From an uncultured delta proteobacterium (GTDB taxonomy: Bacteria; Myxococcota_A; Polyangia; Polyangiales; Polyangiaceae): DNA of 64,000 nucleotides. The stretch spans positions 704,001 through 768,000 of the forward strand of contig CAWJCS010000004.1 of assembly GCA_963841435.1 (NCBI GenBank), given 5' to 3'. The position numbers and the translations under genes are program-made. Numbering within the stretch: the first letter of the stretch is position 1; each line of letters starts with the position of its first letter. This document shows positions 2,664-52,850 of this stretch, one piece after another. The notes beneath the pieces are model-generated. The model saw only the letters and a list, made by a program, of their open reading frames with translations, made no database searches and was not told the DNA's origin.

Positions 2664-3778
2664 CCTCGAATGCCCCCCGCGAACGCCACGAGCGCCTGCA
2701 TCGCGCTCGGGTGAGCCTTGAAGCCCCGGCGGGCGAGCTCCGCGAGACGCGGGCTTCCGGCAAGCGCGAGAACCCCCGCGCCGACGCAGCGGTGGACCCG
2801 CACCGCGCGCGCACGCGCCCGCTCGAATCGGCGCCGAGCGAGCAGGCTCCCGGTCACGATCTCGAACGCGTGCGCTGCGAGAAGCTCGGCGCTCGTCAAT
2901 GCCAAGCTGAGTCCACCGGCCGTGACGGGATCGACGCTCGCCGAGGCATCGCCGAGCAGGATCAAGCCCGGCGGCTCCGGGCCTCGAGCCGAGCTCACGA
3001 GCGGAGCCCGGCCCATGAGCTCGCTGGTCTGCGTCGCCCCCTCCAGCCATTGTCGTAACAGCGGCTCGCGAGTCACCCAGCGGCGAAAGGCGTTACGAAG
3101 ATCGCCCGCGGCGGTGTGCTCATGAGCGAGTGCAGCCACGAGCACCTCGTCGTGCGGCAGCGGCGTGACGTAGAGCTCGTAACCGCAGCGGAGAAAGATC
3201 TCGATATCCAAAAGCGGCATCGCGTCGCTCCGGCGTCGAAAATGCGCGCGCACCCCGACCCGGCGCGGCTTTACGATGCGTTCGAGACCGAGCTTCCGCC
3301 GCAGCTTCGAGTTGGAGCCGTCGGCGGCGACCACGAGGCGCGCGCGGCGCGCCTGTCCGTGCACGACGACCCCACTGACGCGGTCTCCCTCCGAAAGCAA
3401 CGAATCGACCCCCGTACCAGCTCGGGCAGTCACTCCGGCGGTCCGAGCCGCGGCCGCCCAGAGCGTAGTGTCCAGCCGAATGCGCTTCTGGCCAATCCCG
3501 TGAGGTGCGGCGGAGCCGTCACCGGGGCCGAAGCTGCTGCGCAGCGAGCCGCCCGTCAGGTGATAGCGCACACCCGCGAGCGGCTGTCCCGCCACGGCAT
3601 CGGCGAGCCCGAGATGTTGCAGCGCTTCGACGCCTGCCGGAAGCAGGCCCTCCCCGCAGGGCTTATCGCGAGGAAACGTCGCCCGCTCGTAGAGCTCGAC
3701 CTCGAAACCACGGCGTCCGAGCGCGACCGCGAGCGACGCGCCCGCAGGACCGGCGCCGACGACGATCACGTCAGTCAT
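2660..3778 (-). CDS. FAD-dependent oxidoreductase/monooxygenase (GGR-like fold)
   Basis: DVIVVGAGPAG, FPRDKPCGEG, AADG, LGDA..VDP..AGG motifs. Confidence 0.85.
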   Translation of the reverse strand: MTDVIVVGAGPAGASLAVALGRRGFEVELYERATFPRDKPCGEGLLPAGVEALQHLGLADAVAGQPLAGVRYHLTGGSLRSSFGPGDGSAAPHGIGQKRIRLDTTLWAAAARTAGVTARAGTGVDSLLSEGDRVSGVVVHGQARRARLVVAADGSNSKLRRKLGLERIVKPRRVGVRAHFRRRSDAMPLLDIEIFLRCGYELYVTPLPHDEVLVAALAHEHTAAGDLRNAFRRWVTREPLLRQWLEGATQTSELMGRAPLVSSARGPEPPGLILLGDASASVDPVTAGGLSLALTSAELLAAHAFEIVTGSLLARRRFERARARAVRVHRCVGAGVLALAGSPRLAELARRGFKAHPSAMQALVAFAGGIRG

Positions 3779-4376
3779 GGCTTGCCTCTCGCGCGAGCGC
3801 CGGCGAAGCCCTGCGCAGGCGCGGTACGAAGCGGGGCTTGTCTCCCATCCTTGCGCGGTAGGCGGGGTGAGAGAACAGCACCGACTCCTCGAGCAGGATC
3901 CGTCGTCGGAGCACGAAGAGGTGCAGCACCGAGCCGAGCGCCGCCGTCACCCAGGCGCCTTGAACGAGTGGCAGGAACAGAAGCTCGAGGAAGACGGCCA
4001 CGTAGTTTGGATGACGCACGAACCGATACGGTCCGGAAGCGACGACGCCGAGCCCTACAGAATCGACGACCCGTACGTTCCAGTGCGGGCCGAGGCTGCG
4101 GATTGCCGCCACTCGCAGAAGGCTCGCGCCGACGACGCCCGCAGCCGCGCCTCCGCCGAGCCACAACGGGACCGCGCGTCTCGTGATCAACGGCTCCACG
4201 AGCGCGCCCCCGAGGATGGTGACGTGCAGCCAGACCATCGTGCAAAATCCCGGGTCTTCGACCGCCTGCGCGCCGTGCTCCACGAGCCAGCGGCGGTGCC
4301 TCCGCGAAACGCGTAGCTCCGAAAGCCGCGTCACGGCGAGCAGTCCCACCAGCGCGATGAGAATCGCGATCAGCAC
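3771..4376 (-). CDS. Isoprenylcysteine carboxyl methyltransferase (ICMT) family, SrsB/BpsB-like
   Basis: RLSEL..SRRH, LGPHWNVRV, GPYRFVRHPNY, RI..EE; GTG start at the PKS stop. Confidence 0.88.
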   Translation of the reverse strand: MLIAILIALVGLLAVTRLSELRVSRRHRRWLVEHGAQAVEDPGFCTMVWLHVTILGGALVEPLITRRAVPLWLGGGAAAGVVGASLLRVAAIRSLGPHWNVRVVDSVGLGVVASGPYRFVRHPNYVAVFLELLFLPLVQGAWVTAALGSVLHLFVLRRRILLEESVLFSHPAYRARMGDKPRFVPRLRRASPALAREASHD

Positions 4377-21592: not shown

Positions 21593-24500
21593 ATGGCCGA
21601 GAGCCCGTTCGAAAAGCTGGTCCAGGATCCGAGCCTGCCGGAGATGGAGCGCGGCATCCTCGAGCTCTGGGAGCGGCTCGACGCGTTCCGGGAATCGAAC
21701 CGGCGCCGAAAAGGGCAGAAGGAGTTCGTGTTCTACGACGGGCCGCCCTTCGCGACGGGAACGCCGCACTACGGCCACCTGCTCGCAGGAACGATCAAAG
21801 ACATCGTCCCGCGCTACTGGTGCATGCGTGGCCATTACGTCGAGCGGCGCTTCGGCTGGGATTGCCACGGCTTGCCCATCGAGAACCTCGCCCAGGACGC
21901 GCTCGGCCTGAACGGCGCGCCGGACATCCGTGCGCGTGGCGTGGCGGAGTTCAACGAACAGTGCCGCTCGATGGTCCTACGTTACGTCGGGGAGTGGCGC
22001 GCCGTCGTCACGCGCATGGGGCGCTGGGTGGATTTCGACGACGACTACAAGACCATGGACCCCGAGTTCATGGAGTCCGTCTGGTGGGTGTTCAAAAAGC
22101 TCTGGGACGCCGGTCGCATCTACCGCGCGCACCGCATCGTCCCGTATAGCTACAAGCTCAGCACGCCGCTCTCGAACCTCGAAGCGAGCGCGAGCTACCA
22201 GGACGTGCAGGATCCGGCGATCACGGTGCGCTTCCGGCTGCTCGACGCACCGTTTGCCGACGAAGCGCCCACGTTCGCGCTCGCCTGGACGACCACGCCC
22301 TGGACGCTCCCGGGCAATCTCGCGCTCTGCGTCGGCCCGGACATCGAGTACCGCGTCGTCGAGGACATTGCTTCGGGCGCGCGCTACGTCGCGGCGACGG
22401 AGCGGCTCTCTGCGCTCTACAAGTCGGAGTCGGAGTACCGCGTCCTTCGCACGCTGCTCGGCAAGGAGCTCGTGGGCCTCAGCTACGAGCCTCTTTTCGA
22501 CTATTTCGCGGGCCAGCCGAGCGCCTTCCGGATCCTCGCGGACGGTTACGTGAGCACGGGCGACGGCACGGGCATCGTGCACATCGCGCCCGCCTACGGC
22601 GAGGACGACTACCGCGTGTGCCGCCGCGAAGGCATCGGGCTCGTGGATCCGCTCGACGCCGAGTGTCGCTTCACGAGCGCCGTGCCCGAGCACGCGGGTG
22701 TGCTCTGCAAGGAGGCTGACAAGGCCATCATCCGGCGCCTCAAGGACGCCGGGAAGCTCGTCAAACAAGAGACGATCGTGCACAGCTATCCGTTCGACGA
22801 TCGCACGGACACGCCGCTCGTCTATCGTGCCATCGACGCCTGGTACGTGAAGGTGGAGGACCTTCGCGATCGCATGGCCGAGCACAACCAGCTCATCCGC
22901 TGGGTGCCCGAGGCCGTGGGCAGGAATCGCTTCGGCAACTGGCTCCGCGACGCGCGCGACTGGAACGTCAGCCGCAACCGCTTCTGGGGCTCGTGCATCC
23001 CCGTGTGGATCGCGGAAGACGGCTCCGATTCGCTCTGCATCGGCTCGATCGCCGAGCTCGAAGAGCTATCGGGCGTCAGGCTGACCGACCTGCACAAGCA
23101 CTACGTCGACGAGGTCGTGATCGAAAAGGGTGGCAAACGTTACCGCCGCACGCCCGAGGTCCTCGACTGCTGGTTCGAATCGGGCGCCATGCCCTACGGC
23201 CAGAAGCACTACCCGTTCGAGAACAAGCAACGCTTCGAGGCGACCTTCCCCGCAAACTTCATCGCCGAGGGGCTCGATCAAACGCGCGCCTGGTTTTACT
23301 ACCTGCTCTTGCTCTCGACGGCGCTCTTCGACAAGCCGGCGTTCGAGAACGTCGTCGTCAACGGCCTCGTGCTCGCCGAGGACGGCAAGAAGATGTCGAA
23401 GTCGAAGAAGAACTACCCCGATCCGGGCAAGGTGCTCGAGGAGATCGGTGCGGACGCCCTGCGCGCCTACCTCATCGACTCGCCCGTCGTGCGCGGGGAA
23501 CCGCTGCGTTTCAGCGAGAAGGGGCTGCGCGAGATCGTTCGCACGGTCGTGTTGCCCTATTGGAATGCGCTCTCGTTTTTTGTCACGTACGCGCGCGTCG
23601 ACGGCTGGGACCCTCGCACGGCGAAAGCGCGCGCCGTGCGCGAGCGCGGCGAGCTCGACCGCTTCGTCTTGTCGGAGCTCGAGAGCCTGGTCGGCGACGT
23701 GAATCGCGAGATGGAGGCGTACCGGCTGTTTGCGGTCGTGCCGCGGCTCGTCGCCTTCATCGACACGCTCACCAACTGGTACATCCGGCTATCGCGGCGG
23801 CGCTTCTGGAAGAGCCAGGACGACGCCGACAAGGGTGACGCGTACGAGACCCTGTACGAGGTGCTCACGACGTTCGCGCGCGTCATGGCGCCGTTCATGC
23901 CCTTTTTGAGCGAGTTCGTGTACCAGCGCACGGTGCGCGCCGTCGACGCGGCGGCGCCCGCCTCGGTGCACTTCTGCGACTACCCGCTCGTGCGTCCCGA
24001 GCGCATCGAAAAAGCGCTCGAAGGGCGCATGAGGCTTGCGCGCCAGGTCGTCTCGCTGGGGCGGCGCCTGCGCGAGGAGCAGAAGCTCAAAGTGCGCCAG
24101 CCGCTCGCTCGGCTCACGGTCGTGAGCCGCAATCCCGCCGTGCGCGCAGCCGCGCTCGAGAGCACGGCGCTCTTGTCGGAGGAGCTGAACGTCAAGGCCG
24201 TCGACAGTTCGGACGACGAGGCGTCGTTCTGCTCGCTCAGCGTGAAGCCGAACTTCGCCAGCCTCAAAGCGCGGGCCGCGAGCAAGCTCAAGGAGATCGG
24301 GCAGGGGCTTTCGAGCTTCGGCTTCGAGGAGGTCGGGCGGCTCGAAGCCGGCGAGACGATCCCGCTCGCGGGTGAGGCGATTGCGCTCGCCGACGTACTC
24401 TTGGTCAGAAAGCCGACGCCCGGCCGTGCGGTGGCGAGCGAGGGCGACGTGACGCTCGTGCTCGACGCCGAGCTGACGCCCGAGCTCTTGCTCGAAGGAC

Positions 24501-24739
24501 TGGCGCGCGAGCTCGTCAGCGTGCTGCAGCAGGCGCGAAAGTCGCTCGGCCTCGAGGTGAGCGATCGGGTGAAAGTGTTCTGGGACAGCGAGGACGCGGA
24601 CGTGGTGCGCGCCATCGAGGTGCACGGCGCGTGGGTGAGCGAGGAGGTGCTCGCGCGCGAGCTGTCACGCGACGCGACGGTGACGGGCCGCGAATCGCTC
24701 AACGGCAGGCCAGTCAGGCTGCGCGTCGAGAAGGCGTGA
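21593..24739 (+). CDS. ileS: Isoleucine--tRNA ligase (IleRS2-type)
   Basis: DGPPFATGTPHYGH, GWDCHGLP, WTTTPWTLP, EGLDQTRAWF, KMSKS; no C-terminal Zn finger. Confidence 0.96.
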   Translation: MAESPFEKLVQDPSLPEMERGILELWERLDAFRESNRRRKGQKEFVFYDGPPFATGTPHYGHLLAGTIKDIVPRYWCMRGHYVERRFGWDCHGLPIENLAQDALGLNGAPDIRARGVAEFNEQCRSMVLRYVGEWRAVVTRMGRWVDFDDDYKTMDPEFMESVWWVFKKLWDAGRIYRAHRIVPYSYKLSTPLSNLEASASYQDVQDPAITVRFRLLDAPFADEAPTFALAWTTTPWTLPGNLALCVGPDIEYRVVEDIASGARYVAATERLSALYKSESEYRVLRTLLGKELVGLSYEPLFDYFAGQPSAFRILADGYVSTGDGTGIVHIAPAYGEDDYRVCRREGIGLVDPLDAECRFTSAVPEHAGVLCKEADKAIIRRLKDAGKLVKQETIVHSYPFDDRTDTPLVYRAIDAWYVKVEDLRDRMAEHNQLIRWVPEAVGRNRFGNWLRDARDWNVSRNRFWGSCIPVWIAEDGSDSLCIGSIAELEELSGVRLTDLHKHYVDEVVIEKGGKRYRRTPEVLDCWFESGAMPYGQKHYPFENKQRFEATFPANFIAEGLDQTRAWFYYLLLLSTALFDKPAFENVVVNGLVLAEDGKKMSKSKKNYPDPGKVLEEIGADALRAYLIDSPVVRGEPLRFSEKGLREIVRTVVLPYWNALSFFVTYARVDGWDPRTAKARAVRERGELDRFVLSELESLVGDVNREMEAYRLFAVVPRLVAFIDTLTNWYIRLSRRRFWKSQDDADKGDAYETLYEVLTTFARVMAPFMPFLSEFVYQRTVRAVDAAAPASVHFCDYPLVRPERIEKALEGRMRLARQVVSLGRRLREEQKLKVRQPLARLTVVSRNPAVRAAALESTALLSEELNVKAVDSSDDEASFCSLSVKPNFASLKARAASKLKEIGQGLSSFGFEEVGRLEAGETIPLAGEAIALADVLLVRKPTPGRAVASEGDVTLVLDAELTPELLLEGLARELVSVLQQARKSLGLEVSDRVKVFWDSEDADVVRAIEVHGAWVSEEVLARELSRDATVTGRESLNGRPVRLRVEKA

Positions 24740-24906
24740 GCAGAGCCGGACGGCGGTTCCCAGCGTGATCGACCAGGCGCCGGCCCTGTGGCATCGCTCC
24801 CCGCAACCGTTGCTGGGCCAGAGAGCCGCTGGCACAGCTGGCACAGCCGCGGAGCCCGAAACGGCCCTCGGGGGAGCACTGGGCCCTGCTGACGCGCTCC
24901 GAGGCG

Positions 24907-24922
24907 TGGCATGATGGTTGCT
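24907..24922 (+). promoter_or_regulatory. Putative sigma54 -24/-12 promoter
   Basis: TGGCATGatggTTGCT, GG/GC spacing 12 nt, 14 nt before ATG 24937. Confidence 0.68.
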
Positions 24923-24936
24923 CCGCCGAGGACCCC

Positions 24937-25602
24937 ATGAAGCGCCGCCGCTCACGAATCGTACCCAGCGTGGTGTTCGCCACCACCGTCACGGCGGTCG
25001 TGCCCGTCGTCGCCTGCGGGTCGTCCTCGGATGACGAGCAGGGTGGGGGCAGCTCCGGCAAGGGGGGCACGGCGCAGTCCGGAAGCGGTGGCACGGCGGG
25101 GGGCGTGGCTATGGGCGGATTCGGGGCCACGGGCGGTGCGACCGTAGCGGCGTCCGGCTTTGGGGGTACGGGAGGCGCCACGGTGTTTCTCGCCGGGTTC
25201 GGGGGCACGGGCGGTGTGAGCGGCGCGGGTGCCGGGCTCGGCGGCACGGCCGGCGCAACCGTGTTCGCCGCTGGCTTCGGCGGGTTCTCCGTGGCGGGGG
25301 GCGGCTTCGCCGGGCTCGGCGGCACTGCGGGCTTCGGCGGCGGCGTGTTCCTCGCCGGCTTCGGTGGCATCGGTGCTGCCGGCGCGGGCGGCCGTGGTGG
25401 TGCGGGCAACGCCGGAGCCTCGGGTGCTGGCGCGGGTGGGCAGTCGGGCAGCGCCGGCTCGAGCGGCGCGGCGGGGCAGGGGGGTGGAGGAGGGTTCACG
25501 GTCTTTGCGGCTGGTTTCGGGGGAGGCGTCGCGGCCGGTGCCTTCGGGGGAGGCGTCGCGGCCGGTGCCTTCGGCGGCGGTGGCCGCGGCAGCGGCGCCT
25601 GA
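24937..25602 (+). CDS. Gly-rich lipoprotein with nine V-x4-F motifs (candidate multi-core precursor)
   Basis: Basic N-terminus, hydrophobic stretch, VVAC27G lipobox; GAGGA SD. Confidence 0.75.
   Translation: MKRRRSRIVPSVVFATTVTAVVPVVACGSSSDDEQGGGSSGKGGTAQSGSGGTAGGVAMGGFGATGGATVAASGFGGTGGATVFLAGFGGTGGVSGAGAGLGGTAGATVFAAGFGGFSVAGGGFAGLGGTAGFGGGVFLAGFGGIGAAGAGGRGGAGNAGASGAGAGGQSGSAGSSGAAGQGGGGGFTVFAAGFGGGVAAGAFGGGVAAGAFGGGGRGSGA
25516..25574 (+). repeat. Exact 27-bp tandem duplication encoding FGGGVAAGA
   Basis: ttcgggggaggcgtcgcggccggtgcc at 25516 and 25543. Confidence 0.9.
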
Positions 25603-25622
25603 GCGATTCGAGGACCGCGTCG

Positions 25623-26498
25623 ATGACCGTGCGCGAGCGCCTAGCGATCACGTCCGCGCTGAGCGGGACGCCGCTCTCTCGTCAGCACGAGCTCGCGCTC
25701 GCCGGCAAGCTCGTGAAGCCGCCCAAGGCGCTGCCATGGACGGCGTTCGACCGGAGCGCTCACGCGGAGGCCGCGCTCGGCCTCGCGACGCACCTGCATC
25801 GCGGCCTTGCACGCGGTGAATATGCGGCCATCGGCCTGTTTGCGGAGCTCGCGGCGGGCCTCTCGTTCACGGGTGCGCCGCTCGACTTCATCCATGCCGC
25901 CACGGTGGTGAGCGGCGACGAGGCGCGTCACGCCGAGTACTGCGTGCGCATGGCAACCCTGTGCCACGGGGCCGAGGTTCCGATCGAGGTGGCCGCCAAC
26001 GATCTCCACGCGAGCCTCGCTCCGCTCGTCAACATCGAGGAAGTGGACTTTGCGATGCTACAGCTCGTCGCCTTTTCCGAAACGCTCGCCACGGGCCTCC
26101 TGGCCGAGTGCCAGCGGCGCGCGAAGGATCGACTGAGCCGTGCGCTGTTTCGCGCCTTGATCTCCGACGAGGTCCATCACGCGCGGCTCGGCTGGTACTA
26201 CGCCGCCTACCGCTCGCCCCAGTGGTCGCTCGCAGAGCGACAGCGGCTCGCGGATCGTGTCAGCGGGTTCGTCGTGGAGGTCGAGCGACAGTTCTGGGTC
26301 GGACGCGACGCCCCGCCGGCGGCCGCTGCTTCGGCGCGCGCGCTCGGCATCCTGGACTCCAAGGCGCAGCGAGCGGTGATCCGAGATGTCATGGAGAACG
26401 AGATCGTGCCGGCGCTCGACGCGCTCGGCTTCTCCGGGTCGCGGGTGTGGTCCGTGCGGCGGCGTGGCGCGCCGGCTCCGCGCCGCCGCAAGCGATGA
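25623..26498 (+). CDS. Ferritin-like diiron-carboxylate protein
   Basis: E(YAAI)...DEARH and E(TLA)...DEVHH paired ligand motifs. Confidence 0.82.
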   Translation: MTVRERLAITSALSGTPLSRQHELALAGKLVKPPKALPWTAFDRSAHAEAALGLATHLHRGLARGEYAAIGLFAELAAGLSFTGAPLDFIHAATVVSGDEARHAEYCVRMATLCHGAEVPIEVAANDLHASLAPLVNIEEVDFAMLQLVAFSETLATGLLAECQRRAKDRLSRALFRALISDEVHHARLGWYYAAYRSPQWSLAERQRLADRVSGFVVEVERQFWVGRDAPPAAAASARALGILDSKAQRAVIRDVMENEIVPALDALGFSGSRVWSVRRRGAPAPRRRKR

Positions 26499-27922
26499 CG
26501 GCGGTCCTCGCGCTCCGGCCGCTCCGCGCGCGGCTGACGGCTCGCGAGCGCTCGCGGCTCGCGAGCACCCTCGAACGGTTGCTCGCGTGGCAGCGCACGC
26601 TCAACGGGTTCCCCGCGGCCGTGAGGGCTCCCGATGCGACCCCCATCGTGTCCCTGTATGCCGACGGGACGCTGCGCGGCTGCGCGTACAGCGACGAAGG
26701 ACGGGGTGGCGAGCGGCTCGCGCGAGCGTTCTTGTTCGCGCTCGGGGACCCGCGCGCGCACTCCCTGGACCCGCGCGCCCGGGGACGGCTGGTGGCAGAG
26801 CTCAGCTATGCTCGCGATCTCCGGCGCGTCTCCTGGGCCGCGGCACCGGCCCTGATTGCCCCCGGTGCGCACGGCCTCGCGCTCGAGCATCCTGGGGGGA
26901 CGACGCTGCTCGTCCCCGATGTCGCCCGTGAAGCGGGTCTCGACGCTGGCGGGTTGCTCGACGCGCTGTCGCGCAAAGCGGCGCTCGGTGTGGCCGAGCG
27001 AACGGCGCGCCTCTACCTGTTCGAAACGGAGCGCATCGTCGTTCCGGGCACGCGGTCGAGCGTTTCACGGGCTGCCGACGCGATTTCGTCCGCCGTGCGC
27101 TGGCTGTGTGGCCGCGTGGGGTCGGACGGCGCCATGAGCTTTGGTCTCGATCCCAAGGCCGGGCGTGACGAGCCGGTCGGTCCGTTTCACCACGGGCGCG
27201 CCGCCGTCGCCGTCGCCGCGCTCTCGGCCCACCCCCTGGGCCGCAGCGCGGCGGAGCGCGCTCGCCGTTGGCTCGGGCGCGAGCTTGCCCGGGCGCTCGG
27301 TGGTGCCCCCGTCCCCGGCTTTCCGAAGGACGTGCCGGGCGTCGCCGGAACGCTGGCGCTCGCGTCGCTCGCGGGCGTCGCCGTCGGGCCGCGCCTCGCC
27401 GAGCTTTCACTGAGCGACGCGCTCGGGCGGTCTGCGTGGCACGCGGCGCAGGTTGCGTGCGCGCTCGGGTCCGAGACGCCGCCTTCGCTATGGCGTTCGT
27501 TGGTCCGCGCCCTCGACCGTGACGCTCGTGCGCCGTGGACGCTCCTCGCAGCGCGCGCTCGCGGCGACGCGCGCGTCGTCGAGCGCACGACGGCTGCGCT
27601 GGTCGCGGCGCTGAGACCCGACGGTCCCCACCGGGGCAGTGTCACGAGCGGCGGCGCGCCCGAAGTCGCGCTGACGGCGCTCACGGTCGAAGCGCTCGCA
27701 GGCGGGCAGGAGAGCGCGGTGCGCGCAGGGCTCGTCGAGGCGGTCGCGTTCCTCGAAGGCTGCCAGGTGGGGCCCGACTCGCTGCCGGAGGCTCTCGACG
27801 CCTCCCGAGCGCTGGGCGCCTTTCCGCTGACGCCGGTTTGTTCCTTCCTGCGCACTGACGTCACGGCGCATGCCGTGCTTGCCCTCCTCGCGGCCAAGGC
27901 AGGCCCGCGGGGCGCGCGCTGA
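26495..27922 (+). CDS. AMMECR1-domain protein fused to a helical (alpha/alpha toroid-like) C-terminal domain
   Basis: GTLRGC, DPR, PGAHGL, LVPDVARE..L...GLL..L.RKA, LFETE; C-terminal RTDVTAHA; ATGA overlap. Confidence 0.72.
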   Translation: MTAVLALRPLRARLTARERSRLASTLERLLAWQRTLNGFPAAVRAPDATPIVSLYADGTLRGCAYSDEGRGGERLARAFLFALGDPRAHSLDPRARGRLVAELSYARDLRRVSWAAAPALIAPGAHGLALEHPGGTTLLVPDVAREAGLDAGGLLDALSRKAALGVAERTARLYLFETERIVVPGTRSSVSRAADAISSAVRWLCGRVGSDGAMSFGLDPKAGRDEPVGPFHHGRAAVAVAALSAHPLGRSAAERARRWLGRELARALGGAPVPGFPKDVPGVAGTLALASLAGVAVGPRLAELSLSDALGRSAWHAAQVACALGSETPPSLWRSLVRALDRDARAPWTLLAARARGDARVVERTTAALVAALRPDGPHRGSVTSGGAPEVALTALTVEALAGGQESAVRAGLVEAVAFLEGCQVGPDSLPEALDASRALGAFPLTPVCSFLRTDVTAHAVLALLAAKAGPRGAR

Positions 27923-27982
27923 ATCAGAGTGACCGCTCCAAAGCTCTTGCGGACGCGGGGAAGGTCGCTACGGTGAACGCGC

Positions 27983-28489
27983 ATGGCGTCGCGCAACGCT
28001 CTCGTCGTCGGAAGCCCGGCGCCAGACTTCACGCTGCACGATCAGTCCGGGCGCGCCGTGCATTTCGCCGAGCTTCTGAAACAGGGCCCCGTGGTGCTCT
28101 ACTTTTACCCGAAGGACCACACGCCCGGCTGCACGCTCGAGGCTTGCGGTTTTCGTGATGCCCAGGCGGATTTCGCGAAGGCCGGGGCCACCGTCGTCGG
28201 CGTGAGCGACGACACGGTCGCGGAGCACGCGCGCTTTGCCGCCCAGCACGCCTTGCCCTTCACGCTGCTCAGCGACGCCCGGGGTCAAGTGCGCGAGCTC
28301 TACGGCGTGCCGCGCCTCTTCGGCGTCATCCCAGGTCGCGTCACGTTCGTGGTCGATCCGGACGGTATGATCCGCCACGCGTTCACGTCGCACCTTCGTA
28401 TGCAGCGCCACGTGGTCGAAGCGCTCGAGACGGTGCGCAAGCTCGCTCAGGGCGGCAGCCCGGCGAGCGGCGGCGCGGTCACGGCGTAG
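27983..28489 (+). CDS. bcp: Peroxiredoxin BCP/PrxQ
   Basis: APDFTL, YFYPKD.TPGCTLEAC.FRD. Confidence 0.92.
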   Translation: MASRNALVVGSPAPDFTLHDQSGRAVHFAELLKQGPVVLYFYPKDHTPGCTLEACGFRDAQADFAKAGATVVGVSDDTVAEHARFAAQHALPFTLLSDARGQVRELYGVPRLFGVIPGRVTFVVDPDGMIRHAFTSHLRMQRHVVEALETVRKLAQGGSPASGGAVTA

Positions 28490-29727: not shown

Positions 29728-30156
29728 CTACCTTCGCGGACCTTTCACGTGAACCTGCAGGCTTGGCGCTTCGGTGCGCGTCGCGTGCAGACCGATCATG
29801 AAGCTGCCGGGGACGCGGGGCTTTTGGTCGAAGGTCTTGCCGTCGAGGCTCACGCGGATGCCTCCTTCGCCGAAGCGCACGAAGCAGTGCTGGCGTGCGA
29901 CGAGCGTGAGCTCCGCGTCCTTTCGCTCGAGAACGAAGTCCTCCCCGTCGAACTGGAGGTCGACGGGCAGTCGATCGCCGGCCTGAAACTCGACCACGAG
30001 CGCGCGGTCGCCCTGGTAGGCGGAAAGGCCGCCGTGGCCGACGTCCGCATAGCGGACCACGTAGGGTGGTGGGCTCGCGGCACAGCCGAGGGCGCAGCAA
30101 GCGGCGCCGACGAGCAGGCCGGCGCGGCTCTGGAATCCGCGCACGAATTCGATCAT
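29728..30156 (-). CDS. Hypothetical lipoprotein
   Basis: Lipobox ALGC; GAGG SD. Confidence 0.65.
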   Translation of the reverse strand: MIEFVRGFQSRAGLLVGAACCALGCAASPPPYVVRYADVGHGGLSAYQGDRALVVEFQAGDRLPVDLQFDGEDFVLERKDAELTLVARQHCFVRFGEGGIRVSLDGKTFDQKPRVPGSFMIGLHATRTEAPSLQVHVKGPRR

Positions 30157-30284
30157 CGCTTTTTCCTCACGTTGGGGCGTCGGGGTCACGAGGACGAGTT
30201 GCCCCAGAATACCCGCGGAGTGAAGCGCCGTCTGCGCGGCGCGCGTGGAGGTTCGTCAACTTGCCGCACGAAGCGGGCCCGTGT

Positions 30285-31502
30285 ATGGCCGGGAGAAGGA
30301 CTTCCATCGCAAGCGACGTCATCATCGTTGGAGCGGGTCCCGGTGGTTCGAACGCCGCTCGCATCGCCCTCGATGGCGGTCTGTCCGTCGTTCAGATCGA
30401 CGCGCAGCGGTTTCCGCGCGTCAAGCCTTGCGCCGGCGGAGTGACACGCAAGGCCGAACGCGCGCTGGCGCTCGATCTGATGCCTTCCGTTCGCGCCAAG
30501 TCGAACACCATCGAGTTCAACGTCTGGAAGAAGCGCACGAACCGCTTCACCGATCAGGACACGCTGGTCTCGTTCGTGTGCCGCTCGGAGTTCGACAACG
30601 ACCTCGTGCGCCAGAACCGGGAGCGGGGTCGCTTCGAATTTTTCGACGGCGAGCGCGTCGAGCGCATCGCGTACGACGGTGTCTTTCGCGTCGAAACGTC
30701 GAAGCGCGTGCTCACGGGCAAGCAGCTCGTGGGTGCGGACGGCGCGTACAGCGTCGTCAACCGCAGGTTTGGCATCGCGCGCCCGCGCGCGCTCGCCACG
30801 GCGCTCGAGGTCAACATAGACCGCGGCCGGCTCACGGCGTGGGACGAGTCCGTGCCGTGCGTCAACTATGGCGCGGTCCCGCAGGGCTACGGCTGGATTT
30901 TCCCCAAGGACGACCACCTCTCGATCGGCCTTTACACGCTCGCGCCCAAGACGGACCGGCTGCGCGAGCGCCTCGTCGAGTACCTGGCGTCGAAAGGCGC
31001 GCTACCGAGCGGCAGGCCGCTCGACGGTCTCGAGGCGCACCGCATCCCCGTGGGCGGCTACCAGCTGAAGACCCCGCTTGCGCCCGTGTACTTGGTGGGC
31101 GACGCCGCGGGGCTTGCCGACGCGCTGACGGGTGAAGGTATCTACTACGCGCTCGAGAGCGGGCGCCTCGCGGGAGAGACGCTCTGCGCGGTCGCCGCGG
31201 GGCATGCTTCGCATCGAGCGTACTACTCGCGTCTCTGGCGCACGGTTCTCGCCGACACCGCACTCACGTACGCGCTCGCGATCCCCTTCACCAAGAACCC
31301 CGACTCGGCAATGCGGCTGCTCGAAATTCCGCTCGTCTGGCGGCCGCTCACCTACGGCTACTCGCGCGGGGCCACGTTCACGGGTTGCGTGCTCAGGGGG
31401 GCCGCCTATTTCGCGGCGTCGCTCGCGCGCACGACCCGGGAGCACGCGAGCTGGCGGGAAGCCGTACCCGTACCCTGCGAGGATCCAGACGTTGGAGACT
31501 GA
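30285..31502 (+). CDS. Geranylgeranyl reductase family flavoprotein
   Basis: VGAGPGG, FPRVKPCAGG, GADG, GYGWIFPK, VGDAAG..D.LTGEGIYYA. Confidence 0.9.
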   Translation: MAGRRTSIASDVIIVGAGPGGSNAARIALDGGLSVVQIDAQRFPRVKPCAGGVTRKAERALALDLMPSVRAKSNTIEFNVWKKRTNRFTDQDTLVSFVCRSEFDNDLVRQNRERGRFEFFDGERVERIAYDGVFRVETSKRVLTGKQLVGADGAYSVVNRRFGIARPRALATALEVNIDRGRLTAWDESVPCVNYGAVPQGYGWIFPKDDHLSIGLYTLAPKTDRLRERLVEYLASKGALPSGRPLDGLEAHRIPVGGYQLKTPLAPVYLVGDAAGLADALTGEGIYYALESGRLAGETLCAVAAGHASHRAYYSRLWRTVLADTALTYALAIPFTKNPDSAMRLLEIPLVWRPLTYGYSRGATFTGCVLRGAAYFAASLARTTREHASWREAVPVPCEDPDVGD

Positions 31503-51735: not shown

Positions 51736-52800
51736 TCAGTTGGCGCCCGCCAGCGAGATCACCGCGCAGCGCCCCGCGTTGCAGACGGCTTCGAGAGCGG
51801 GCGGGTACTGAGGGACGCAGGCGGGGCAACCGACGGGGTCGCTGCCGCACACGAGCGCGCCGAGCCCACCCTCGGGGTTCACGGCGACGACCTTGCGCGC
51901 ATCGGCGCTGCACCCCTCGCAGCAACCGAGTCCGTCGCGCAGCGTGCAATCCTCGTTCGTCGTGCACTCCGTCACCGACGACTCGCGCGCGTCGAAGAGC
52001 TCGCAGAAGCCGGCCTGACAGGTCGCACCGAACCAGGCGCTGTCGTCCGGGTCGGGCGGATCGCAAATGGGGCAGGCGATCCCGCCGCAGCCCGCGCGCA
52101 GGGGGTAATTCGCTGCGGCGTCATGATTCACGGCGACGAGCGGATCCGGCTGGCGGAGCGCGCAGTCACCGCAGCAGCCCCGCGTGATGACGACGCAATC
52201 GGACGACGAGGTGCACGCGGCGGCGTGGAAATCGCCCGACAGACCGCAACCGTCGTAGCACCGCTCCATGCTTTCGAAGTTGTTCGCGTTGCCTTCGCAG
52301 CCGCCGTAAGAAAACGGCACGCAGACGCCGAGTTTCTGGTCGAAGGCGTAGCGGGAGAGCGCGCCGTCGCATGGCCCGGTGTCGGCGGGCAGCGCGCAAG
52401 GGTCACCGTTGTCTCCGCCGGCGCCCGCGGCGCCGCTCGCATTGCCCGCGCCGCCGCCACCTGCCGGCCCCGTGCCGCCCAACGAGCCCGCAGTGCCGCC
52501 CTCCGTTGCGTCGCCGCCCGTCGGTCCGTCGCCGCCCGACGAGCCCCCGCCGCCGCCGCTGCCCCCGACGGTGCTGCCCGCGAACGACCCCGCGCTACCG
52601 GCCGTGCCGCCGCGGCCGCTGCTTGCGCCCGTGCCGCCGTTCGCTCCACGACCCGCCGCCGCGCCGCTGCCCGCCTGGGCGCCCTCGCCGCCCGTGCCGG
52701 CGTTGCAATCCGCGCAGCTCGACTCGGAGCGGCCCGCGCACCCCGCAAACGAAGCCGCGGCGAGCGCGATGCCGAAAAGCGCACCACCGACGCCTCGCAT
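51736..52800 (-). CDS. Lipoprotein with Gly-rich linker, BPTI/Kunitz domain and Cys-rich repeats
   Basis: CALPADTGPC...RY.F...C..F.YGGC.GNANNF....C...C. Confidence 0.88.
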   Translation of the reverse strand: MRGVGGALFGIALAAASFAGCAGRSESSCADCNAGTGGEGAQAGSGAAAGRGANGGTGASSGRGGTAGSAGSFAGSTVGGSGGGGGSSGGDGPTGGDATEGGTAGSLGGTGPAGGGGAGNASGAAGAGGDNGDPCALPADTGPCDGALSRYAFDQKLGVCVPFSYGGCEGNANNFESMERCYDGCGLSGDFHAAACTSSSDCVVITRGCCGDCALRQPDPLVAVNHDAAANYPLRAGCGGIACPICDPPDPDDSAWFGATCQAGFCELFDARESSVTECTTNEDCTLRDGLGCCEGCSADARKVVAVNPEGGLGALVCGSDPVGCPACVPQYPPALEAVCNAGRCAVISLAGAN

Positions 52801-52850
52801 CATTCGAGATTATCGCACGGTGCGAGTCCCGAGCAAGGGGCCCGTGCGGG

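Follow-up and report, generated by a model that had tools for sequence, protein, structure and literature searches.

A conserved three-gene module of Polyangia encoding a repeat lipoprotein, probably the substrate of a ferritin-like diiron protein and an AMMECR1-toroid protein

Organization of the locus

What does a Gly-rich lipoprotein that carries one short motif nine times have to do with the ferritin-like protein and the AMMECR1 domain encoded directly behind it? The question is raised by three genes, here called g1, g2 and g3, in a 64-kb window (the whole stretch of DNA analyzed) of a Polyangiaceae genome. We propose that the small lipoprotein g1 is probably the substrate of two cytoplasmic enzymes, g2 and g3; that they bind and modify g1, by what chemistry and in which order, is what we infer from the features below, given with window positions and strand.

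24907..24922, +: sigma54-type −24/−12 promoter-like element TGGCATGATGGTTGCT, TGGCAT-N5-TTGCT (consensus match; 15 nt 5′ of the g1 ATG)
24937..25602, +: g1, 221-aa Gly-rich repeat lipoprotein, putative precursor/substrate (ORF call)
24937..25017, +: g1 signal region with lipobox, residues 1–27, MKRRRSRIVPSVVFATTVTAVVPVVAC (family alignment)
25105..25572, +: nine V-x4-F motifs in the Gly-rich spacer of g1 (motif script and shuffles)
25623..26498, +: g2, 291-aa ferritin-like protein of the diiron-carboxylate oxidase/oxygenase type, without signal peptide (predicted fold, ligands)
26495..27922, +: g3, 475-aa two-domain protein (ORF call, AF2 model)
26648..27034, +: AMMECR1 domain of g3, residues 52–180 (Pfam, Foldseek, profile against PDB)
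27077..27919, +: C-terminal (alpha/alpha)6 toroid of g3, residues 195–475 (predicted fold, VIA-align)

A preliminary description of this DNA had named a lipoprotein, a diiron enzyme and an AMMECR1 fusion as three tightly linked co-directional genes; the assignments were right, and the ORF coordinates and junction sequences agree with the linkage. The g1 stop codon (TGA, 25600–25602) is followed by a 20-nt gap with GAGGA before the g2 ATG at 25623, and the g3 start overlaps the g2 stop as ATGA. The sigma54-like element reported ahead of g1 contains GG-N10-GC; no other site in the 64 kb of the window matches TGGCAY-N5-TTGCW, and shuffled sequences give a mean of 0.07 matches, with one or more in 7/100. 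By consensus match it is a candidate sigma54-dependent promoter, and a relaxed sigma54 pattern occurs no more than 250 nt 5′ of g1 in 7 of 23 loci.

Conservation of the module across Polyangia

Linkage was examined in two samples: the best 80 loci of a genome-contig scan, which held 23 g2 orthologs (E ≤ 1e-53), and 401 genomes of the order, where g2 was found in 30, spanning six families. The expectation that a repeat lipoprotein would stand beside g2 and g3 homologs held in both. In the first sample a g1-type gene lies immediately 5′ of g2 in 21/21 loci having more than 221 nt of upstream DNA, and g3 immediately 3′ in 21/23; in the second, g1 adjoins g2 in 28/30 and g3 or the toroid adjoins it in 25/30. 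Identity of g2 among linked loci goes down to 38%. The three genes thus make up a module conserved in Polyangia (Myxococcota), in which g3 is not obligatory since it is absent beside g2 in 5/30 and 2/23 loci.

Two further arrangements were seen. Tandem g1 genes, in two or three copies, occur at eight loci (L040, L042, L043, L133, L135, L141, L143 and L145), and g2 is fused to the toroid in four protein clusters (P0316, P0318, P0333 and P0344), with 51% identity to g2 (E 1e-85) and 39% to the toroid (E 3e-38). The same fusion is present in three genomes (L124–L126), with a g1 gene upstream in one. The frames and arrangements of the g1 stop and g2 start differ between loci, which argues against recoding or an assembly error. 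Crude ORF clustering found no further conserved neighbours, and searches of the module with Pfam and NCBIfam returned AMMECR1 and a sub-threshold DUF455 match alone.

Signal region and repeats of the lipoprotein

As described earlier, g1 looks like a lipoprotein with a single Cys at the lipobox (C27). Its N-terminus is K/R-rich and then hydrophobic, and all 26 aligned family members have P10 and C27; conservation of V9 and P23 is 90% or more, and the residue preceding C27 is A, G or S in 26/26, all consistent with a lipoprotein signal. The family consensus is R..IVP.VVF...VVP..[AG]C. This region is conserved like an enzyme, with a mean identity to the window sequence of 49% vs 50% for g2 and ~22% for non-Gly mature positions. 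When g1 is viewed as a leader and core, the N-terminus, conserved like g2, would be a candidate leader and the repeats, kept in a variable spacer, candidate cores; the conserved part, however, doubles as signal peptide. Together with the tandem g1 genes and the g2-toroid fusions, the enzyme-like conservation of this region strengthens the case for a precursor-enzyme relationship. A pattern search of the 7.8-Mb genome gave two matches for this signal type, of which that of g1 alone is real; the other, in an ORF that has an ordinary composition and lacks lipoprotein features, was rejected.

Glycine makes up 85 of the 221 residues of g1 (38%). No Pfam or NCBIfam match was obtained for the protein, and its composition suggests that it has no folded domain. 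A motif script recovered exactly the nine V-x4-F motifs listed in the preliminary description, starting at residues 56, 69, 82, 108, 118, 136, 188, 197 and 206 (Val at 57, 70, 83, 109, 119, 137, 189, 198 and 207). For V-x4-[FY], nine observed compare with 0.8 expected, and 0/2000 composition-preserving shuffles reached nine. Among 50 unique mature sequences of the family, [VLI]-A-x-x-x-[FY] occurs 124 times vs 6.2 expected, ~20-fold over shuffles, and position +4 is G or A at 111/122 sites, giving [VL]-A-x-x-[GA]-[FY]. The spacers between these repeats shift among Gly-rich, Asp-rich and Pro-rich. Judged from these alignments and counts, the repeat motif is under strong selection while the spacers change. 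With that said, the main motif is absent from 10/50 g1-type proteins, which have others instead (FSVA, PVVAAY, DVSAHF, IFAGDVS, GPMGG). The site may be plastic, or else modification may not occur at the motif.

On the opposite strand a 261-aa ORF overlaps g1, and codon-position GC is similar in the two ORFs. This similarity, the lack of a domain match in g1, and fused ferritin-like paralogs in the same genome (C3:76367–77671 and C5:16026–17930) and in Sorangium would fit g1 being a leftover signal-plus-linker from a split lipoprotein-ferritin-like fusion, or a chance ORF in GC-rich DNA. We consider either origin highly implausible, as six families retain the g1 ORF together with its lipobox Cys and motif, g1 is duplicated in tandem, and the g1-stop and g2-start frames differ between loci. 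The motif is also in excess over shuffles, and the Kunitz lipoprotein of the window (51736..52803, − strand; Kunitz_BPTI domain, E 7e-18) has no V-x4-[FY] in its first 80 mature residues although they are 39% Gly, in agreement with the earlier observation that its linker lacks the pattern. The leftover or generic-linker reading therefore appears largely refuted by the comparative data.

The ferritin-like diiron protein

The AF2 model of g2 (pLDDT 93.8) predicts a four-helix-bundle core. In VIA-align the top match is 6d9f (Z 18.5, rmsd 3.5, 249 aligned), followed by sMMO hydroxylase (1fyz, 17.7), R2 (17.5) and R2lox (4hr0, 17.2), with aldehyde-deformylating oxygenase (ADO, 5ux2) at Z 17.0, PaaA (3pvr) at 16.2 and acyl-ACP desaturase (1oq4) at 14.3. 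Across the ferritin-like diiron-carboxylate enzymes (R2lox, ADO, PaaA, bacterial multicomponent monooxygenases and acyl-ACP desaturases) the fold is the same, with Z 14–18.5 over 206–259 aligned residues, and so is the pair of E...(D/E)ExxH ligand sets, but identity is just 7–16% and the N-terminal extension (LS.TPLA..HE ... IPW) is specific to the g2 family. A g2 profile gave no profile-level match to solved PDB chains, Pfam DUF455 (PF04305) scored 23.3 bits, below the cut-off of 34.3, over residues 35–107 only, and Pfam found no DUF692 match in g2.

Both E...DExxH sets noticed earlier in g2 are invariant in the family: E66, D99-E100-x-x-H103, E153 and D182-E183-x-x-H186 are identical in 46/46 aligned homologs, all with two DE..H motifs, the six metal ligands being E66, E100, H103, E153, E183 and H186. 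A catalyst should show such invariance, or at the least a protein whose function depends on metal. The genes linked to g2 include no reductase or ferredoxin partner. R2lox forms an internal Val-Tyr ether crosslink, a lead that makes a Val-aromatic crosslink by g2 chemically conceivable.

The ferritin-like paralogs of the same genome mentioned above are fused, exported lipoproteins, and the superfamily is thus not tied to cytoplasmic peptide chemistry. On the other side, a paralogous ferritin-like family forms a parallel system that favours the substrate reading of g1: its genes, too, follow one for a small lipoprotein whose signal region is related. What the window and paralogous families have in common is the ferritin-like protein and the I..x.VVF signal region, the lipoproteins being unrelated in their mature parts. 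It is conceivable from this, and from the signal region being the best-conserved part of g1, that g2 with g3 handles g1 non-covalently, binding the N-terminus of an aggregation-prone protein as an escort, a targeting factor or a metal/O2-responsive export gate. We think this quite improbable, given that 46 sequences show no change in any of the six diiron ligands and that an N-terminal escort leaves the selection on the repeat motif unexplained. Nor are we aware of any ferritin-like protein that acts as a signal-peptide chaperone.

The AMMECR1-toroid protein

The only AMMECR1 domain of the genome is that of g3, where Pfam AMMECR1 (PF01871) matches residues 52–180 with 38.9 bits against a cut-off of 25 (E 8e-10). 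Foldseek retrieved 1zq7 (E 1.3e-8), 1vaj and 1wsc, and a profile search of the PDB also found 1zq7 (E 1e-13). An L-R-G-C type motif is the hallmark of the AMMECR1 family, which is conserved from archaea to humans. In g3 LRGC occupies residues 60–63; L.GC is present in 44/50 homologs and LRGC in 18/50, with G62 invariant and C63 at least 90% conserved in the family. The Pfam match, the motif and the AF2 model (pLDDT 92.7, helical C-terminal domain confidently modelled) all support the proposed joining of an AMMECR1 domain to a helical domain. TIGR04335 (AmmeMemoRadiSam system protein A) scored 32.3 bits, below its cut-off of 99. While g3 has the fold and the L.GC of AMMECR1/AmmeMemoRadiSam protein A, it differs in that the domain is part of a fusion with an alpha/alpha toroid and has a diiron protein as its partner, rather than a Memo protein and a radical SAM enzyme; no Memo-like or radical SAM genes lie between ileS and bcp in the window.

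The C-terminal domain is predicted to be an (alpha/alpha)6 toroid like that of class II terpene cyclases, although Pfam found no match in it. VIA-align matched it to 8paj (Z 19.4, 22% identity), 5z3a (19.4), 8zg0 (19.2, 21%) and 1gsz (18.7), and 6sbb is 20% identical. The class II terpene cyclase/squalene-hopene-cyclase-like proteins (8paj, 8pak, MstE 6sbb, 1gsz) have the same fold (Z 17.4–19.4) and, among the matches listed, the highest identity (18–22%), but glycosidase toroids match equally well (5z3a, Z 19.4). DxDD is the catalytic motif of class II terpene cyclases, and D.DD was found anywhere in 0/50 g3 homologs. There was no LanC entry among the 50 fold matches listed for g3; other toroids fill these lists, so a match to a LanC-like peptide cyclase may have gone unlisted.

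These similarities raise the possibility that g2 and g3 make or alter a hydrophobic metabolite (for example a lipid or isoprenoid) in the cytoplasm, and that the repeated hydrophobic "stickers" in the flexible chain of an unmodified g1 bind, carry or organise it in the envelope. The proteins closest to g2 in fold are oxidases of lipids or aromatics (6d9f, ADO, PaaA, acyl-ACP desaturase), and among the matches listed the toroid is nearest by identity to class II terpene-cyclase-like proteins (8paj, 8zg0, 6sbb). In L125 and L126 the gene directly 5′ of the g2-toroid fusion encodes a geranylgeranyl-reductase-like FAD enzyme, a 28% relative lies 2 kb downstream in the window, and the enzymes are cytoplasmic while g1 is exported. 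We nevertheless regard a role in metabolite handling as unlikely, because the surroundings of the module hold no conserved gene for isoprenoids or lipids, the class II DxDD motif is missing from all 50 g3 homologs, and neither the enzyme-like conservation of the g1 signal region nor the tandem duplication of g1 is explained.

Proposed modification of a pre-lipoprotein

The explanation we prefer, held with a little less than even confidence, is that the cytoplasmic g2/g3 pair modifies the g1 repeats before Sec export and lipidation. g1 would be made as a pre-lipoprotein whose conserved N-terminal signal region doubles as a recognition handle. As an O2-activating diiron-carboxylate enzyme, g2 would act together with g3, the toroid serving as its physical partner and the AMMECR1 domain supplying an accessory activity, and the two would oxidatively modify the repeated [VL]-A-x-x-[GA]-[FY] units. 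As to the reaction, we would guess that the aliphatic residue undergoes C-H hydroxylation or desaturation, or that Val is crosslinked to the aromatic residue so as to close a ring of six residues. Sec export, acylation on Cys27 and release by signal peptidase II would follow, and the product would be a lipid-anchored repeat peptide that is multiply modified. Since g2 and g3 are without signal peptides and g1 is exported, the model requires modification ahead of export.

The g1-g2 adjacency is what is generally expected of a RiPP locus, a gene-encoded precursor beside modifying enzymes, but Pfam and NCBIfam found no recognized RiPP enzyme family or RRE domain at the module, and no protease or transporter. 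Counting against a peptide substrate, the proteins that resemble g2 and the toroid in structure have lipids, aromatics, terpenoids or sugars as substrates, not peptides. The fuller claim, that the module represents a new class of lipid-anchored, multi-site modified peptide in which a diiron oxidase and an AMMECR1-toroid protein modify or crosslink each repeat with the signal peptide as leader, is one we put forward tentatively and regard as doubtful.

If this were true, the ferritin-like diiron fold would for the first time be seen in a RiPP-type role, and RiPP-lipoprotein hybrids would have a second, unrelated enzyme set. It would also provide the first defined substrate for an AMMECR1 domain, the biochemical function of which has, to our knowledge, been a question for two decades. 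Motif, handle and enzyme are each short and well defined. Should no modification take place, the module would still be an envelope system of Polyangia, strictly linked and restricted to the lineage, with an unusual lipoprotein of stickers and spacers.

Comparison with known systems

In multi-core RiPP precursors, such as those of cyanobactins, fungal dikaritins and multi-core microviridins, the units are excised by dedicated proteases. The g1 family resembles them in having a short unit repeated within the precursor, variable copy number and tandem precursor genes, but no protease is linked to the module and the chain likely stays whole and lipid-anchored.

The preliminary description recognized no described pathway with this arrangement, which stands only in part: we found no publication with this enzyme set or with a multi-repeat substrate of this kind, but the lipoprotein-signal RiPP logic has already been published (PMC13056109). 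That report (PNAS 2026) presents DAG-RiPPs, RiPP-lipoprotein hybrids made by ChrH/DybH-type MNIO enzymes, whose precursors have lipoprotein signal peptides and undergo modification by a cytoplasmic iron enzyme that lacks one, followed by triacylation (PMC13056109). DAG-RiPPs and the module have in common a precursor with a lipoprotein signal peptide and an invariant lipobox Cys, an iron enzyme without signal peptide, and a precursor gene directly adjoining the enzyme gene (PMC13056109). With a signal-less iron enzyme in both, modification would come first, and export by Sec, diacylglyceryl transfer and cleavage by signal peptidase II only afterwards. The differences lie in the enzymes and their presumed sites. 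The module has a ferritin-like four-helix-bundle diiron protein where DAG-RiPPs have a DUF692 TIM-barrel MNIO, and an AMMECR1-toroid partner where theirs is ChrI- or DUF2063-type; its presumed sites are 2–10 Cys-free [VL]-A-x-x-[GA]-[FY] repeats, as opposed to the single CPxCGxG of the DAG-RiPPs.

Locus Organization and Promoter

The three genes of the module, which code for a Gly-rich lipoprotein with V-x4-F repeats (g1, the putative precursor), a ferritin-like diiron-carboxylate protein (g2) and an AMMECR1 domain joined to an alpha/alpha toroid (g3), lie in the same direction between ileS and a peroxiredoxin/Bcp-like gene, in a window with a G+C content of ~70% that homolog names assign to Polyangiaceae (Myxococcota):

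21593..24739, ileS, upstream flank
24937..25602, + strand, g1 ORF
25623..26498, + strand, g2 ORF
26495..27922, + strand, g3 ORF
27983..28489, peroxiredoxin/Bcp-like gene, downstream flank

The gene junctions are as the preliminary description gave them: the g1 stop codon (25600-25602) is followed by a 20-nt gap containing GAGGA and then by the g2 ATG, and g2 and g3 overlap by ATGA. Upstream of g1, TGGCATGATGGTTGCT (24907-24922) is the sole sigma54 consensus match in the 64 kb, with 0.07 matches expected. Since this element is just 15 nt before the g1 ATG, the predicted transcript would have almost no leader. As a raw count, 7 of 23 related loci have a relaxed sigma54 pattern ahead of g1, spaced differently from one locus to the next; neither a sigma70-like promoter nor an intrinsic terminator was found between 24500 and 28600, and no RNA runs were listed for 24800-28000. 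A 261-aa Pro-rich antisense ORF (24714-25499, - strand) overlaps g1 as a mirror image of its Gly codons, has a GC content by codon position resembling that of g1, and is most likely a shadow ORF. Recoding or a frameshift joining g1 to g2 was rejected because frames and spacing vary between loci, and ileS and bcp were rejected as module members, as neither is found beside orthologous modules.

Conservation of the Linkage

The expectation that g2 and g3 homologs would consistently adjoin a repeat lipoprotein was borne out in two sets of genomes. Sample A, a pattern scan using one genome per GTDB species and the best 80 loci, held 23 orthologs (E <= 1e-53, 38-62% identity, Sandaracinaceae included) and 57 paralogs at 26-33% identity, while sample B comprised 401 genomes from the order, 30 of which contain g2 (families f1, f2, f14, f17, f18 and f84). 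A g1-type gene is directly upstream of g2 in all 21 sample A loci with enough upstream DNA and adjoins g2 in 28/30 cases in sample B, and g3 is directly downstream of g2 in 21/23 loci in sample A and adjoins it, whole or as its toroid, in 25/30 cases in sample B; these counts express consistency and are not statistics, as the samples overlap and kin are non-independent. Locus L037 (73 nt upstream) and locus L050 (which starts within a g1-like C-terminus) were left out of the sample A g1 count, and in the same sample g3 fails to follow g2 only in L034, where the module is a genome's second copy, and in L050, where the contig is 2.2 kb long.

Where g3 is not beside g2, a copy can be elsewhere in the genome. 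The order g3-g1-g2 was inferred across a contig break in genome G024 (L114 = G024:C258; L009/L050 = G024:C765), and genome G025 has an intact g1-g2 pair on one contig and g3 behind a g2 C-terminal remnant on another (L113, G025:C14). In loci that lack g3, the genes following g2 are unrelated to one another, and crude ORF clustering of 24 loci gave no further conserved neighbours beyond g1-g3. All carriers seen are uncultured MAGs. In one genome (G037), a putative polyprenyl-synthetase-like ORF is convergent with g3 (L030:2692-3621).

The g1 Lipoprotein and Its Family

The g1 product has 221 aa, 85 of them Gly, and a single Cys (C27) behind a K/R-rich and then hydrophobic N-terminus; it had no match in Pfam or NCBIfam. 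All nine V-x4-F motifs listed in the preliminary description were recovered exactly, compared to 0.8 V-x4-[FY] motifs in shuffled sequences, and a count of nine never arose in 2000 shuffles. Its further claim that the Gly-rich Kunitz lipoprotein of the window lacks the motif also holds. In the product of that gene (51736-52803, - strand), a long linker rich in Gly accompanies a Kunitz/BPTI domain (E 7e-18), which is not common among bacteria.

Searching residues 1-40 of g1 against 5.8 billion proteins gave 28 candidates, none at E <= 0.01. Twenty-six family members can be aligned, at the N-terminus only, with the pattern M-[K/R-rich]-x-(I/F/V)-V-P-x-x-V-(F/L)-...-(V/I)(V/I)-P-...-[AGS]-C, with no variation at P10 or C27. 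Within a protein, conservation is usually lowest in the signal peptide. Mean identity to the window is 49% over the 24-residue g1 signal stretch, 50% for g2 and ~22% at non-Gly mature g1 positions, and the Sandaracinaceae sequences match the window at 58% of signal-region positions versus 38% for g2, with the signal-region figures being inflated by hydrophobic composition. In the window's own genome this type of signal has a single genuine copy, the sole other pattern match being an ORF without lipoprotein features. A Tat signal, and with it hitch-hiking export of g2 or g3, was rejected, as the twin arginine varies in position and is missing from several members.

Mature parts in the family range from 40 to 218 residues with Gly-rich, Asp-rich or Pro-rich spacers. 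Counting over 50 unique g1-type sequences gave 124 [VLI]-A-x-x-x-[FY] motifs where 6.2 would be expected, with at least one in 40 sequences and at least two in 34, and G or A fills position +4 at 111/122 sites (examples are VAAGGF, VANMAF, VAYRGY, VAAVAY and LAIGAF). The remaining 10 sequences are missing the main motif and have other short repeats instead, including FSVA(D/A) in Sandaracinaceae, PVVAAY, DVSAHF, IFAGDVS, and GPMGG in L034. Eight loci have two or three tandem g1 genes. Next to these figures, the reading of g1 as a leftover linker or chance ORF is very hard to credit. The g1-type lipoprotein at L034:628-1194 (= L023) belongs to a second module in one genome, one without g3, and its mature part has zero Val, Phe or Tyr and carries G-(T/N)-G-P-M-G-G repeats.

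The g2 Diiron Protein and Its Tie to g3

The AlphaFold model of g2 (pLDDT 93.8) is a ferritin-like helical bundle whose best structural matches are 6d9f (Z 18.5), the sMMO hydroxylase alpha subunit (17.7) and RNR R2 (17.5), followed by R2lox (17.2), PaaA (16.2) and acyl-ACP desaturase (14.3). Behind these enzymes of the ferritin-like fold come the storage ferritins and the Dps proteins, at Z <= 12. Residues E66, D99, E100, H103, E153, D182, E183 and H186 are invariant across 46 homologs. The score against Pfam DUF455 was under cut-off, a profile search found no solved structure related by sequence, and no signal peptide was seen on reading the N-terminal sequence.

The g3 model (pLDDT 92.7) places an AMMECR1 domain at residues 52-180, with a Pfam score over cut-off, Foldseek matches to 1zq7, 1vaj and 1wsc, and a profile E-value of 1e-13 against the PDB. 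It is the sole AMMECR1 domain of the 7.8-Mb assembly, and g3 scored far under cut-off against AmmeMemoRadiSam protein A. Residues 195-475 form an alpha/alpha toroid of twelve helices, for which glycosidases and class II terpene-cyclase-like proteins are level at Z ~19, with higher identity to the terpene-cyclase-like proteins (18-22%). The DxDD motif is present in 0/50 g3 homologs. A lipid or isoprenoid pathway with g1 as its binding lipoprotein seems unlikely to us.

Profile searching of 1.84 billion representatives with g3 gave 122 matches at E <= 1e-30. Four of these (571-594 aa), from four separate clusters and sources, have a g2 domain first and the toroid last with no AMMECR1 domain between, the g2 part being 51% identical to g2 (E 1e-85) and the toroid part 39% identical to that of g3 (E 3e-38). 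Three genomes, all from a single genus, have the same fusion as an unbroken frame, with a g1 gene directly upstream in one. These fusions indicate that the toroid is the partner of the diiron protein, and AMMECR1 is an addition present in most, not all, versions of the module. Using fusion protein P0318, a metagenome scan returned a single weak locus, and a phylum-level sample matched 5/401 genomes with the fusion in none. In two of the genomes, a geranylgeranyl-reductase-like FAD oxidoreductase (L125:267-1427, and in L126) is directly upstream of the fusion and a g1 gene is absent from the flank; a 28% identical relative is found in the window at 30066-31502 (+), 2 kb downstream of g3. The reductase-like gene was rejected as a conserved partner, as it adjoins the module in L125 and L126 only.

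Paralogous Ferritin-like Families

One paralogous family, 27-31% identical to g2 over the full length, is found in Kofleriaceae, Haliangiales and Polyangia MAGs. Ahead of its gene is one for a small lipoprotein, whose signal region, I(W/F)(K/R)TVVFAGAMLG..AC, is related to that of g1. The mature part is unlike g1, having a DPCAG-repeat or Lys/Ala/Pro-rich middle and always ending in GRGF(I/V/L)L(S/T/A/G), and no g3 was found at these loci. This pair may be a second precursor-enzyme system, and the related signal region and ferritin-like gene in both families point to an ancient pair of a small lipoprotein with that signal region and a ferritin-like protein. Loci with the lipoprotein are L055:3732-3983, L060:3507-3899, L057 (two copies, ~3150-3843), L056, L058 and L059; a lipoprotein conserved downstream has the sequence FDF(T/V)AVGE(Y/M)EILLHRYDL.

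Other paralogs, from this genome and Sorangium, have a lipoprotein signal of their own, a Gly/Ser-rich linker and a Cys-rich region fused ahead of the ferritin-like domain. The diiron domain of such proteins would be extracytoplasmic.

Fused ferritin-like paralogs
C3:76367-77671, + strand, genome G000
C5:16026-17930, + strand, genome G000
C3:288767-290038, - strand, genome G000
L072, L074, L076, L110, other loci (Minicystis, Sorangium)

Proposed Function and Comparison with Known Systems

The adjacency of the genes, the tandem precursor-like copies and the conserved handle fit a RiPP-type enzyme-substrate pair, as does a short motif kept in a drifting spacer together with an invariant O2-activating metal site. 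We tentatively suggest that g2 and g3 modify the g1 repeats before export, and rate this at somewhat less than an even chance. Non-covalent escort or gating, to be set beside that same metal site, is distinctly improbable, and the remainder of our expectation goes to an explanation outside these four. The chemistry can be guessed at: the aliphatic residue could be hydroxylated or desaturated, or Val could be crosslinked to an aromatic residue, the latter idea coming from R2lox, a fold neighbour of g2, which has a Val-Tyr ether link. Should it not be a RiPP system, g1-g3 would still be an undescribed lineage-specific envelope module.

Literature searches on AMMECR1, ferritin-like/diiron proteins, RiPP precursors and AmmeMemoRadiSam found no description of the g1-g3 module, and those on ferritin-like/diiron enzymes with RiPP precursor peptides listed MNIO/HDO work only. 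Database names for the module proteins are only 'ferritin-like domain-containing', 'AMMECR1 domain-containing' or 'hypothetical'.

The main objection to modification is one of location, with the enzymes in the cytoplasm and g1 exported. It is answered by the precedent of the DAG-RiPPs, RiPP-lipoprotein hybrids made by MNIO enzymes, for which PMC13056109 describes a signal-less iron enzyme that acts on a precursor bearing a lipoprotein signal peptide, triacylation following the modification. The words 'ferritin' and 'AMMECR1' are absent from the main text of that paper, and its supplementary datasets may list other lipoprotein-type precursors. Lipoprotein signals are also predicted for ~16% of Buf2 bufferins, according to PMC12452194. 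By analogy, the g1-g3 module would follow the logic of a RiPP-lipoprotein hybrid, using an enzyme set and a substrate architecture that appear to be new and not seen before.
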